Under the pieces are notes generated by a model. The model was not told the DNA's origin and made no database searches. It was given only the letters and a program-made list of their open reading frames with translations. DNA of 64,000 bases from NCBI GenBank assembly GCA_951406725.2, contig OX597832.1:16740001-16804000 (forward strand), in the 5' to 3' direction. The translations under genes were made by a program, and so were the position numbers. Source of the stretch: Octopus vulgaris. Lineage: Eukaryota. Positions 5,279 through 63,493 of the stretch are shown in pieces. How positions within the stretch are numbered: position 1 is the stretch's first letter; the number at the start of each line of letters is the position of its first letter.

Positions 5279-8200
5279 TATCTATCTATCTATCTATCTA
5301 TCTATCTATCTATCTATATATATATCTATCTATCTATCTATCTATCTATCTATCTATCTATCTATCTATCTATCTATCTATCTATTCATCTATCTTTCTG
5401 TTTGTTTGTCGAACTATCCATCTATCAATCTATCTGTCTGTCTGTCTATCTATCCATGTATCTACCTATTTAACTATCTGGTTATATATATAACATACAC
5501 TGAAAGGGATTGATATGTACGTATCTATGTATGTATTTATCTATACAAGCATGTATGTATATCATTTCTCAGTTTTGTTTCAAGATTTTTTACTAAAAGA
5601 AAAAGAGTAGGTTTCTAATCTACATCCAAGGCTCATTCGTTGAAATTTCAGCATCAACACCAAGGTTTTATTGTATGTATATGTACGTGCAAATTTGTAT
5701 GTTTTGTTTTATGTATGTATTCCCATGCATATATTTGCATATCTAGACATGCTTATATATATACTTAAATGATAAACTTCTGGAAAGTTTTACAGATTTT
5801 TACGCTTCCAGTGATGTATGTATGTTTGTATGTATGCATGTAGGTATAGATGTATAGATGTATCTATGCCTGCTTGCGTATGGGAATAAATGCATTTTTA
5901 TACGCATACGCATAATTATACTTATTAAACTTAGGCACGCATATATATTTATATTTATATCAATGCATATATAAGCGTCACCGTCACCGTCTCAGTGATT
6001 ATACACTCGTCGCTGGTACTATGAATTTCCCGTTTATATCAGATGTTTGCGTAGTCCTGAACCGTCATAAAACAATCATCCGACATTTAACAAATGACAA
6101 ATCAAATTACTTGGAACTAGACACGTGTAAGAAACTAGAGCTGCTCCAGTAGAGAAGACTATAGTGACAGGACAAAACACGATGACATCATTATCGTTAT
6201 TTGATCACTCTAAATATTCGGTTACATAAGGATTCCACTCTGTATGTTTGTGCATATATGCAAATAGGTAAATATATATATAATGTGTATATATATATAT
6301 ATATATATATATATATATATATATATATATATATATATATATATATATATAATATATATACACATTATATATATATGCATTATATCTCTCTCTCTATATA
6401 TATATTATATATTATATATATATATACATACTATATATATATACATTATATATAGGTATATATATATATATATATGTACACACACACACACACACACACA
6501 CACACACATATATATATATATATATATATATATTGTATTATACTTCCGTTTATAAGTTGAGACGCACGAAACTCTCGGATCTGGAGTCACTCTCTTGATT
6601 TTGCTGAATATTAATTACAAATATACATATACTCATAATTTTACTTCTATTTTCTTGTATGCATGAACATATGAATATATAAATATATATCTATATGTGT
6701 GTGTATGTGTGTGTGCGTGCGTGTGTGTGTGTGTATTTATGTATGTGTACGGAAAACAACAAAACGTGAAAAGAATATTAGAATTAAAAAAACAATATAG
6801 GTAAGAAATATCGAAGACTTCGATTTGTTCGATCTAGGGAATGACTGTCCTCAAGGGAAAAAGACAAATAAAAAAAAAAAATTGACGGCTAAAACGATGA
6901 GAAACATGATGTGTAAGAAATTTGAGATTAATGAGATCCATGCTGTGTGGTAGGTTTATATAAGTAAGGATACTCAAATATCATGAGCATTTTGAGCATC
7001 TTATATCTATACATAAAACCAGTCACACCTACTTTTACGCATCACTTTCGTCATAGCTTTCATATCTATCTATCTATCTATCTATCTATCTATCTATCTA
7101 TCTATCTATCTATCTATCTATCTATCTATCAGGTTATCCATCTATCTATTCATCTATCTATATATCTAGCTATTTATCTGTCTGACTGTCTCTCTCTCTC
7201 TCTCTCTCTCTCTCTTTCTCTCTCTTTCTCTGTCAGCGTATCTGTCTATCTATCTATCTATCTATCTATCTATTTATACATATATATATATATATATAAA
7301 TATATATCCATCTATCTATATATCTAGTTATTTACCTGTCTGTCTCTCTGTTTCTTTGTCTGTGTGTCCGTCTCTCTCTCTCGCCCTCTCTCTCTCTCTC
7401 TCTCTCTCTCTCTATATATATATATATATATATATATATATATAGATAGATAGATAGATAGATAGATAGATAGATAGATAGATAGATAGATAGATAGATA
7501 GATAGATATATGCGTGTGTGTATGTGTGGTGTACATATGTGAAATTATAGATGGATAACTATGGATAAATATATACGAACAATCATACACGGAATCAGAT
7601 ACAAACACACATTACTCAGAAACAAGGATTTCCACCTAAACAAACAAACCCCAACATACAAACACATATACATCTACATGTACATAGATTTTACGCATTA
7701 TTATCGCAGATATTAATTTTCATGTCTCCACATTTGCATTCCACACGAATATATATAGACATGTAAACACTCACATGTGCATCCGCACATATTGATTCAA
7801 ATTTATACATGCACACACTCTGCGTATATGTGTGCATACATACTCATAATGCATACACACAACCCAGAAGTGTTTACATACATATATACGCTCATTTTGA
7901 GTACTAAATAATGCTGACAAGATGAGAAAGCGTAGAATTAAGACGATGTAATCCCTGATCACGCAAACAATATCCGGTGAATTAGACTATTAGACTCACA
8001 ACATTTGCTAAAAGTGAAAATTGTCCGGTCTATTTTTTCGCTTGTAGACTGTGAACTTTGCATACACAATCTAACACATACATCATTTGAATAATTGAAT
8101 GTTGGCGTCGAAATCCTCTTAACCACTCAATAGAAAGATGAAGCTGTCCTTCTATACACAATGATCTTTTGTAATCTTTTCCTCCGGGAGCGGAGACAAA

Positions 8201-8770
8201 CAGGCAGAATAAAAATGCGAAGAGGAAATAAAAATTCCTCGACAATCTGATCTTTAATAAAAGTTAAACAGCTTAGATTATTATTGTATATGTATGTACA
8301 TACGTGTGTATATATGTATGTATATGCGTATATATATATATATATATATATATATATATATATATATATAAGCCTACATGCATTACCATATACACACACA
8401 TACACACATGCGTGCACAAAAAAAGACACACACATATATATATATATATATATATATATATATAGATAGATAGATAGATAGATAGATAGATAGATAGATA
8501 GATAGACGCATATACATTTATATACATTTATATATAGATTAATGTATGCGTATATACGTATATTTTTATATACGTGCTTGCAATTGTGAATGTGTTGGCG
8601 TTTGTGCTATGTGAATATACAAATATATACATGTTTATATATATGTATGTGTGTATATATAAATATACACACTCATACGTATATATATATATATATATAT
8701 ATATATATATATATATATATATATATATATATATATATATATAGAGAGAGAGAGAGAGAGAGGGAGAGAG
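5279..8770. repeat. Cluster of (TATC)n, (TA)n, (CA)n, (CT)n and (GATA)n microsatellites
   Basis: Seen directly. Source of the spurious YI/LSIY ORFs. Confidence 0.95.
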
Positions 8771-9335
8771 AGACCCACACATATGTATGTATATGTGTGT
8801 GTATACAAATATATATGCCTGCTTACATTTATGCATCCCTGTCTAACGACACAAAATAGAAAGTGAGAGAAGGGAGAATGTGCGAATGAGGAACTAACTG
8901 TGTAAAGGAAAGTATCTCTCTAATATCACTCGAGAGACAAGAAGAGGAAAAATCTGATGCACAATATAATGAATGGATTCAGAAATATATATATGTGTGT
9001 GTGTATGTATGTGTGTATATATATATATGTATGTCAGTTGGTTTAGTCTTTTGTGCATGCGTGATTTGGAAACCTACACACCAAGGATTCACTCGTATAC
9101 ACTTGCGCAGAAAAGCACTCAATTTGACAAATGCGGAACGTTGTGAATAATAGCGCACCCAACATGTTCATCACCGCGTTTGTAAAAGCCAATCTATCTA
9201 TCTGTTCGTCTAATTATGCACCTAATTTTCTATATGTATGTGTATGAGTTTATAGTATATACATGTATATATATATATATATATATATATAATTAATCAA
9301 TATGCCTCGTGAAAAATATCTGTTCCGGCTTGGCT

Positions 9336-9475
9336 ATTTCTTACTGATGATTCTAAGGGCCTATGGTAGATTGGCTTGATTTAATTTTTAGTTTTCCATT
9401 AAACAGGTTAGTTTTCCATTAAACAGGTTAGTTTTCCATTAAACAGAAGATGAAACGGTGCATCGTCTAAGAAAT
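9336..9475 (+). ncRNA. Type I hammerhead ribozyme motif with long stem II
   Basis: Stem I ATTTCTTA/TAAGAAAT (8 bp), CTGATGA at 9344-9350, GAAAC at 9452-9456, near-palindromic stem III ACGGTGCATCGT, GTC at 9465-9467. Stem II base TTCT/AGAA is offset by 3 nt. Confidence 0.7.
9389..9446. repeat. 20-bp tandem repeat (tagttttccattaaacaggt), about 3 copies
   Basis: Seen directly, inside the HHR stem II region. Confidence 0.9.
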
Positions 9476-62148: not shown

Positions 62149-62222
62149 TCGAGTATTCCCAATACTGAACGATCAGTTTCGGCTAATTCCGCTGCCACAT
62201 CAGTAGGGACCGCTCTACTCGG
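62149..62222 (-). ncRNA. Type I hammerhead ribozyme with extended stem I and one core substitution (A9U)
   Basis: Reverse complement is CGAGTA-gagcgg-TCCCTA-CTGATGT-GGC-agcggaatta-GCC-GAAACTGA-tcgt-TCAGTA-TTGGGA-a-TACTCG. Confidence 0.75.
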
Positions 62223-62745
62223 CTTTTTCCGGAGTTGCTATTCTGTCAGTACAGCTGTATTCAGCATGAAAATCTGTATGATTTAGCGAATCACTAATGT
62301 GTATACAAAACATTAATATAGACAACAGTGTGCAATATATACATTTCAGTATTACTGCTTCATCTATCTGTAAACGGATCCAATTACTACCAGGTAGTCT
62401 ACGTATGTACGTTAATGTAAGGTAGAGTACGTACACGCTGTTATACTTCTGTATCAGCATTGAACAGCAAGATACACTAATTCGATTTGTGTATGTGTAT
62501 GTATATACTTGTGTGCATCTATAGTATTTTGAGTTTACGAGTATTTCAACATATATATGTATATATACCTATATATATCTTTAGTTCTCTCTCTCTCTCT
62601 CTCTCCATATATATATATATATATATATATATATGTATATATATATATATATATATATATATATATATATATATATATATATATATATATATATATGTAT
62701 ATATATATATATATATATATATATATATATATATATATTAATTAC

Positions 62746-63493
62746 ATTAAAGGGTTAATTGCAACAAGTTGCTCAAAACCACGTACCGAAAATATTAGAA
62801 ATAGCAGCCAAATAGATCACTATATCTACTACTAGTAAAACAGTCTCCACAAACCAACAGAATTTGTAACCCGTATATGGTAAAGAGAAAGAAGACAACG
62901 AAATCGCAGCCCATTGGATTAATTATAGACGAATCCGTTTCTGGATTAGAACCGAAAGTCTATTTCCTTGTCAATATAATATTTCCTCTAAATCTAGAAA
63001 TGCTAGGAAAAAAAACTCACCCATTACACCAACTCGATCAGGCGACATCGAACGATATAACGGTCCGCTAGCATCTCTACATTTATATAGACAGGCGAAT
63101 TCGTATCTCCCTCCAAAATTACCACGTGAGTTACAAAAACATTACCAACGAAACGAAGTTTCGCAGATTCATTTTATGGGAGTAAAGAGTATCCAATACA
63201 CATAAAGGGTGAAATATAATTAATTTAATAACATTAATAAATTTCACCTAGTAGTTTTTTTCGGTATGGAAATGACCATATTTGGTAAGAATTATATTAA
63301 TTATAATAAAGGGTTAATTGCAACAAGTTGCTCAAAACCACATAGCGAAAATATTAGAAATAGCAGCCAAATAGATCACTATTTCTACTACTAGTAAAAA
63401 TGTCTGCACAAACAAACAGAATTTGTAACCCGTATGTGGTAAAGAAAATGAAGACTACGAAATCCCAGCCTATTGGATTAATTATAGACGAAT
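62746..63493 (-). mobile_element. Partial tandem (559-bp unit, ~188-bp direct repeat) containing a variant HHR, retrozyme- or pLTR-like
   Basis: 62746-62934 is repeated at 63306-63493. HHR-like motif at 62922-62980. Flanked by TA-rich tracts. Confidence 0.7.

Follow-up and report, generated by a model that had tools for sequence, protein, structure and literature searches.

The 64,000-nucleotide window of the Octopus vulgaris genome analyzed here (assembly GCA_951406725.2, contig OX597832.1, positions 16,740,001 to 16,804,000; coordinates below count from the first letter of the window) raises the question of what the many hammerhead ribozyme (HHR) motifs scattered through it represent, and how they came to be there. 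A first-pass annotation had proposed at least six distinct HHR families, most of them in elements abutting (TA)n tracts and accompanied by several reverse transcriptase (RT) remnants of Penelope-like elements (PLEs), and had read them as a possibly uncatalogued system of non-autonomous RNAs mobilized by PLE enzymes. We find that the motifs are real and above chance, and that they are mostly fossils. The explanation we favor, with a probability of roughly 60%, is that ten mostly decayed minimal type-I HHRs reside in short non-coding repeats likely copied into place by a PLE RT with its GIY-YIG nuclease, four of the six families lying at (TA)n tracts that were their likely targets. The best lead among the HHR families in the window is family B, a repeat with a tRNA-like head.

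Hammerhead motifs exceed chance expectation

The window has a G+C content of 34% and contains 103 tracts of (TA)5 or longer. It was scanned with a strict type-I HHR descriptor (both cores intact, stems I and II of at least 3 bp, stem III self-complementary or a hairpin) and with a relaxed form that tolerates one defect; 60 dinucleotide shuffles of the window served as controls for both. The strict scan gave two matches, 47738(+) and 57599(−), compared with a mean of 0.017 and a maximum of 1 in the shuffles, and the one-defect scan gave three (9344, 47738, and 36349), compared with a mean of 0.18 and a maximum of 1; the HHR density is thus above chance. All of the motifs named in the first-pass annotation are present within ~55 nt of where it had placed them, but only four of the ten pass these controlled scans and the other six are decayed, being truncated or carrying at least two defects. 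CUGANGA and GAAA cores together with an NUH site and helices I and II are found only at 47738, at 57599, and among the relatives of family B described below; eight of the ten window copies fail. When two core mismatches are allowed, 27 cores in the window pass, and the motifs at 62203 and 62974, both judged by eye, are therefore weaker calls.

The palindromic or near-palindromic character of stem III was confirmed: all five strings that had been named are present, the stem (positions 15.2–16.2) is self-complementary at 57599, 36349, 47738, 9344, and 62974, and at 62203 it forms a hairpin with a near-palindromic loop. An extra unpaired base between positions 9 and 10.1 occurs in families A and B and is absent from 47738 and 62203. 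The HHR units are 197–306 nt long, a retrozyme-like size, and non-coding, with no Pfam or PLE match. In the Rfam scan of the window no family reached its gathering score (the best 150 of 176 weak matches were of microRNA type and fell on simple repeats), no HHR or tRNA match appeared in four sub-regions at E values up to 10, and ARAGORN returned no genes from the window.

Partial motifs at 6570, 27636, and 27124 were excluded as HHRs, one core being missing in each. The feature at 6534–6600(+), beside a (TA)n tract, has GAAA, a stem III-like hairpin, and UC without CUGANGA, and was not counted. At 26900–27640(−), two diverged units ~512 nt apart each start with CTGATGA and have a 109-nt block in common; the region starts at a (TA)n tract and is possibly an old HHR-bearing tandem, in which the GAAA core was not found.

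Anatomy of the HHR-bearing units

Two of the units occupy single loci between (TA)n tracts. The 306-nt unit at 9292–9597(+) contains an HHR at 9336–9475 with intact cores, an 8-bp stem I, a 6-bp self-complementary stem III, and a predicted cut after 9467; its stem II is broken and the loop carries three tandem copies of a 20-nt sequence. The 203-nt unit at 47672–47874(+) contains the intact type-I HHR at 47738, with a 5-bp stem II, a long loop II, a palindromic stem III, a 3-bp stem I, and a predicted cut after 47809. Part of its loop II (the 47783–47790 region) is complementary to 47815–47822, just 3′ of stem I, and the two are paired in the minimum-energy fold; such pairing might act as a switch or provide a tertiary contact.

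Family A comprises three copies. That at 57456–57672(−) retains an intact minimal HHR (core 57599) in which A9 is followed by an additional A; stems I and II are 4 bp each, loop III is absent, and the cut is predicted after 57573. Its 3′ end is flush with the (TA)n tract at 57404–57455 and its 5′ edge is approximate. The copy at 27746–27942(−), between two (TA)n tracts, has a decayed core (27877), and that at 51183–51381(+), with a short (TA)5 at its 5′ end, has lost both core (51262) and stem III. These two match the 57599 copy at 72% (score 46.5; maximum of 13 in 300 shuffles) and 68% (score 21.5; maximum of 12 in 300 shuffles), respectively, and are counted as HHRs because of this homology, their own cores being broken. 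All three preserve stem II around a variable loop II, and their 5′ edges all lie ~65–80 nt upstream of the core.

The last two families are weaker calls. The remnant at 62158–62208(−), recognized by eye, has its core at 62203 with A9U, a 3-bp stem II, a 5-bp stem III hairpin, and one mismatch in stem I, and the surrounding element lacks defined edges. At 62738–63493(−), a unit that ends at a (TA)n tract is tandemly repeated in part, with 184 nt in direct repeat (93%) at a period of 559 nt; its single core (62974) carries C3U and G8A beside a 6-bp stem I and a 5-bp stem III. The upstream repeat starts within stem III, 7 nt ahead of the predicted cut. Truncated copies of two different families, at 36618 (family B) and 63493, break within the stem III palindrome, near and not at the predicted cut; two such breaks are too few to interpret.

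HHR units and (TA)n tracts

Adjacency to (TA)n was assessed for nine independent HHR loci against random unmasked positions, at thresholds picked after viewing the data. Tracts of (TA)5 or longer lie within 250 nt of seven of the nine loci (expected 2.7, p = 0.005) and within 150 nt of five (expected 1.8, p = 0.02); when each family contributes a single locus, five of six (p = 0.011) and three of six (p = 0.096) fall within these distances. Tracts of eight or more units lie within 250 nt of six of the nine loci (p = 0.007) and within 150 nt of three (p = 0.13). As a control, 21 copies of four non-HHR repeat groups were taken, two of the groups probably being halves of one element: six copies fall within 150 nt of short tracts and three within 250 nt of tracts of eight or more units. 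Repeats throughout were identified by self-BLAST of the window after masking of microsatellites.

The proposal that most host elements abut (TA)n holds for four of the six families, which are flush with a tract, but not for family B, whose nearest tracts are 646 and 1940 nt away, or for 62203 (240 nt). The units at 9292–9597, 47672–47874, and 27746–27942 each span the whole interval between two tracts, the edges of the first two being set by the tracts themselves. The link to (TA)n is real for four of the six families, and modest.

Remnants of PLE reverse transcriptases

A tblastn search of the window with 151 related proteins, together with a profile of 53 near-full-length ones, recovered two PLE RT remnants rather than the "several" of the first-pass annotation; because all of the queries come from one lineage, remnants of other PLE clades could be missed, and the Octopus Naiads were not part of the comparison. 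The first (56278–57402(−)) comprises RT and thumb of Neptune/Nematis type, is broken and 5′-truncated, and has its truncated end flush with a (TA)n tract; a fragment of it (56947–57237(−)) matches a protein of Octopus sinensis at 74% identity and the tail of an Octopus bimaculoides gene model at 76%. The second (59656–60717(−)), of the same lineage, is more decayed and not TA-adjacent. Pfam analysis of 408 stop-free segments of at least 45 residues detected no RT or GIY-YIG domain, a test that is insensitive because it missed both real remnants. RT is followed by a C-terminal GIY-YIG domain in four of four relatives (Pfam), and the window remnants stop before the nuclease. A CX2-5CxxC linker precedes the YIG motif in 43 of the 53 full-length relatives; this linker has been tied to Neptune and Nematis and, hypothetically, to a microsatellite bias (Craig et al. 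2021, PMC8557442; statements on cited work here and below refer to the consulted portions of each text).

The first remnant begins in the middle of the RT domain at the tract at 57404–57455; across this tract, and on the same strand, is where the 57599 element has its 3′ end. This arrangement would fit two insertions into one target better than a junction between a pseudo-long terminal repeat (pLTR) and an open reading frame (ORF). An O. bimaculoides TRPV5 gene model ends in ~130 residues of this PLE RT, which is probably an annotation artefact or an exonized remnant. A frame at 32832–33158 was rejected as a third PLE remnant, no homologue having been found (three candidates). It falls within one of two copies (88%) of a decayed repeat, at 32300–33160 and 29650–29835, with no homologue and no PLE match; one frame of this repeat has a weak motif that we take to resemble a long interspersed element (LINE) RT.

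Family B, an abundant repeat with a tRNA-like head

The full copy of family B (36222–36515(−)) consists of a tRNA-like head, an (AAT/AAC)n spacer, a minimal HHR (core 36349) carrying G12A, and a ~90-nt 3′ tail. Adjoining its 5′ end is an inverted, 5′-truncated partner (36524–36618(+), core 36585), in which the HHR cores are intact and the copy stops at GAAACG, without a cleavage site. A further copy at 59198–59526(+) has a head without an A box (B box near 59216), an (AAT)35 spacer, a decayed core (59395) with stems III and I changed, and the 3′ tail. The copies at 36585 and 59395 are 82–86% identical to that at 36349. In the full copy, the head has an A box at 36509–36499 and a B box at 36464–36456, spaced by 45 nt; by the consensus patterns used in the scan, this is the sole A-box and B-box pair in the window, compared with 0.075 per shuffled window. 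The head is joined to the body in the same orientation in both of two cases and occurs nowhere else in the window.

The abundance of the family was gauged by comparing the region 36050–36800, at 80% likeness, with contigs from four of 24 listed sequencing runs. In two DNA runs, 30,595 and 28,706 contigs match, and the summed depth is 0.4–8 million over the body and 51–58 on the flanks; since contig depth is not copy number, we take these values only to mean "very high copy." Two further runs, presumed to be RNA, gave 3,934 and 2,142 contigs, from which no expression is claimed. At 36222 the 3′ edge is abrupt, and beyond it the flanks are mixed and AT-rich (agreement 0.41–0.48); contigs running into (TA)n would break and may be under-counted there. 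Among the relatives, G12 is restored in 43% and 51% of the depth at 36321 (two DNA runs), stem I is lengthened to 4 bp (95% at 36310 in run X1), and sequence extends past the cut site, loose ends at 36618 numbering 256 and 280. As a family, the repeat therefore has an intact ribozyme. Searches of metagenome, prokaryote-genome, and viral collections with family B patterns gave no matches, as expected for animal DNA.

Depth over the head is 5,000–24,000, which is 50–100-fold under that of the body; this may mean either that most copies are headless or that the head of this copy is too diverged to recruit contigs. The head shows six majority differences in 36449–36476, and there is a comparable dip in depth at 36360–36371. 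Family B is very abundant, lies behind what looks like a tRNA-type promoter, and may be an undescribed self-cutting short interspersed element (SINE). More tentatively, and as a possibility that we would not yet expect to prove correct, it could be a tRNA-promoter SINE that took up the end of a PLE pLTR together with its dimer-type hammerhead and, copied by Penelope-like enzymes, reached copy numbers in the tens of thousands; it would then be a PLE-dependent SINE and one of the major repeats of octopus, its ribozyme unnoticed and perhaps able to cut in trans between copies in host transcripts.

Origin of the units and alternative explanations

Under the favored explanation, a PLE protein would bind the HHR RNA, nick AT-rich DNA, and reverse-transcribe the RNA there, leaving monomers, partial tandems (62738–63493), or a complete copy beside an inverted, truncated one (36222–36618). 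With the Poseidon protein of Anolis, AT-rich nicking, internal initiation, and protein-assisted HHR cleavage have been shown (Frangieh et al. 2024). With stem III palindromic or absent, cleavage is predicted only as a dimer or with the help of protein, and a solo genomic copy would rarely cut; solo copies would then be inert passengers, which fits their decay. Family B would be transcribed from its own tRNA-like RNA polymerase III (Pol III) promoter, as a SINE-like unit with a PLE-type ribozyme. In this family, cleavage would detach the tail from its promoter, an outcome that a review describes for the SINEs of schistosomes, and a ribozyme needing a partner could allow full-length monomers to be copied.

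Several observations support the favored explanation: the motifs exceed chance; the three family A copies preserve stem II and begin at similar distances from the core; family B is very abundant, its relatives restore the ribozyme, and its head carries the sole A-box and B-box pair of the window; the extra base after A9 (families A and B), the palindromic 15.2–16.2 positions or loop III, and the short stem I match the minimal HHRs of PLEs; an RT remnant starts flush with (TA)n, and its relatives carry the CX2-5CxxC linker; the inverted 5′-truncated partner at 36524–36618 reproduces a described PLE insertion pattern; and six of nine HHR loci lie near tracts of eight or more units, compared with three of 21 control copies. 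Insertion bias towards (TA)n in PLEs, including Octopus Naiads, and inverted 5′-truncated partners have both been documented (Craig et al. 2021, PMC8557442). Several results weigh on the other side. No HHR family is linked by sequence to a PLE ORF, and there is no ORF homology beside any motif in the window; three HHR families are represented in the window by one locus each and are only putative repeats; non-HHR repeats also lie within 150 nt of (TA)5 (four of six copies in group S1 and two of four in S2); minimum-energy folds of monomers and homodimers do not yield the hammerhead fold, the folding being uninformative; and the single PLE assayed in vitro did not need HHR cleavage in order to insert (Frangieh et al. 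2024). For family B, the low depth of the head counts against the proposal, as does the absence of any Rfam tRNA or ARAGORN match to it. SINE heads often fail tRNA models. The idea of a PLE-mobilized, non-autonomous HHR system survives in its anatomy, its TA adjacency for four families, and its two RT remnants, but no sequence ties any HHR family to a PLE ORF, catalysis is predicted to be lost in most copies, and family B stands away from (TA)n and carries a tRNA-like head.

The same features could arise if the TA-linked units are the 3′ pLTR ends of heavily 5′-truncated autonomous PLEs, and family B an HHR-bearing PLE end inserted in the (AAT)n tail of a separate tRNA SINE. Solo minimal HHRs have been interpreted as truncated PLEs (Cervera and de la Peña 2014, PMC4209133), most PLE insertions are 5′-truncated with one terminal repeat (Li et al. 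2026), the Anolis PLE nicks at ATT, and the head of family B is far shallower than its body. We nevertheless regard this account as doubtful, since the family A copies have a common 5′ edge within ~15 nt, both family B heads are joined to the body in one orientation and are absent elsewhere in the window, and no motif has ORF homology beside it. That the units are ordinary LINE-mobilized SINEs, or repeats resembling miniature inverted-repeat transposable elements (MITEs), with a passenger hammerhead, their (TA)n having grown by slippage at element ends rather than served as targets, is unlikely: SINEs do make up 11.6% of O. vulgaris and are mostly unclassified among recent families, (TA)5+ tracts are plentiful and neighbor non-HHR repeats when short, and the 3′ flanks of family B are mixed and AT-rich, but the motif is of the type described from PLE pLTRs, a partial tandem and an inverted truncated partner are present, and a PLE RT remnant also begins at a TA tract. 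Finally, chance matching in AT-rich, repeat-rich DNA could apply only to 62203, 62974, and the partial motifs, and is very improbable as a general account; the 27 two-mismatch cores, the two calls by eye, and the lack of an Rfam match speak for it, and the excess of both scans over the shuffles and the core intact among thousands of family B relatives speak against it, excluding it for 47738, 57599, 9344, and family B.

Other repeats in the window

A 379-nt unit at 16282–16660, between two (TA)n tracts, carries direct terminal repeats of 34 nt (97%), an arrangement that recalls a monomer with a PLE "tail"; the descriptors used found no hammerhead in it, and it has no Rfam match at E < 2. One common repeat without an HHR forms partial tandems, arranged head to tail, at 22427–23026, 20907–21248, and 12065–12232 (183-nt period, with three copies at 22427–22975). 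Broken reading frames at 47950–48900(−), which have no database match, resemble a Tc1/mariner transposase, and an imperfect palindrome at 41324–41480 (157 nt, 77%) is possibly a MITE.

Comparison with known systems

The interpretation is plausible, and the class to which it assigns the units is already published (Cervera and de la Peña 2014, 2020; Craig et al. 2021; Li et al. 2026): other animals are known to carry solo HHR units that PLEs mobilize, with a preference for (TA)n. Metazoan PLEs carry minimal HHRs with an extra base after A9, palindromic 15.2–16.2 positions or a loop III, and a short helix I, in many families per genome and mostly solo (PMC4209133). The window motifs resemble them in being type I, in the extra base between 9 and 10.1, in the palindromic or absent helix III and short helix I, and in their many unrelated families, solo occurrence, and predicted dimer cleavage; they differ in having no tie to a full PLE, in the long loops II of 47738 and 9344, and in the tRNA-like head of family B. 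Animal retrozymes are proposed to be non-autonomous units mobilized by PLEs, dispersed monomers included (PMC7229834; Li, Clavereau, and Pollet 2026 preprint, 10.64898/2026.07.22.740005). These non-LTR retrozymes and the window have in common short non-coding HHR units (~170–400 nt), dispersed monomers, and co-occurrence with PLEs. Retrozymes are defined by circular RNAs and by units arrayed in tandem that include two or more complete HHRs, whereas in the window there are monomers and a lone partial tandem, whose one HHR is decayed. Compared with Neptune/Nematis-type PLEs (PMC8557442), the RT remnants are broken and without the nuclease domain, and are assigned to Neptune and Nematis jointly.

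Octopus does not figure in the consulted portions of Cervera and de la Peña 2014 (PMC4209133), and the word occurs zero times in the main texts of PMC7229834 and the Li et al. 2026 preprint. For O. vulgaris, 31 PLE families with recent activity and 893 SINE families that lack a classification have been reported, with no mention of ribozymes in the consulted main-text portions (Bonar et al. 2026, PMC13282606), and the giant squid has 235 Rfam hammerhead_1 matches (PMC6962438). The literature searched, whose coverage excludes most subscription journals and Repbase, contains neither an octopus hammerhead catalogue nor a PLE-mobilized tRNA SINE. The general picture thus extends to cephalopods a known rule, that PLE-rich animal genomes are strewn with solo minimal hammerheads.

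Family B, if correctly read, would go further. SINEs are normally paired with LINEs, and an abundant tRNA-headed, PLE-dependent element would be a partnership without a description in the literature searched; it would provide a short, high-copy natural substrate for probing PLE protein recognition and the purpose of the hammerhead, and would help to sort part of the large "unclassified SINE" fraction in octopus genomes. Octopus tRNA-derived SINEs were reportedly described by Ohshima and Okada in 1994. They and family B are alike in their tRNA-like head and very high copy number, and family B may itself be one of these SINEs, for which the literature searched reports no hammerhead. The octopus OR2 element is a CORE-SINE (PMC4758252). 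The schistosome SM-alpha and Sj-alpha repeats are SINE-like, tandem, and cleave in vitro through a canonical type-I HHR (reviewed in PMC6765202). Family B and these schistosome elements share a Pol III-type promoter followed by a hammerhead, from which basis family B departs in its dispersed monomers, its minimal HHR, its (AAT)n spacer, and its PLE-like inverted partner.

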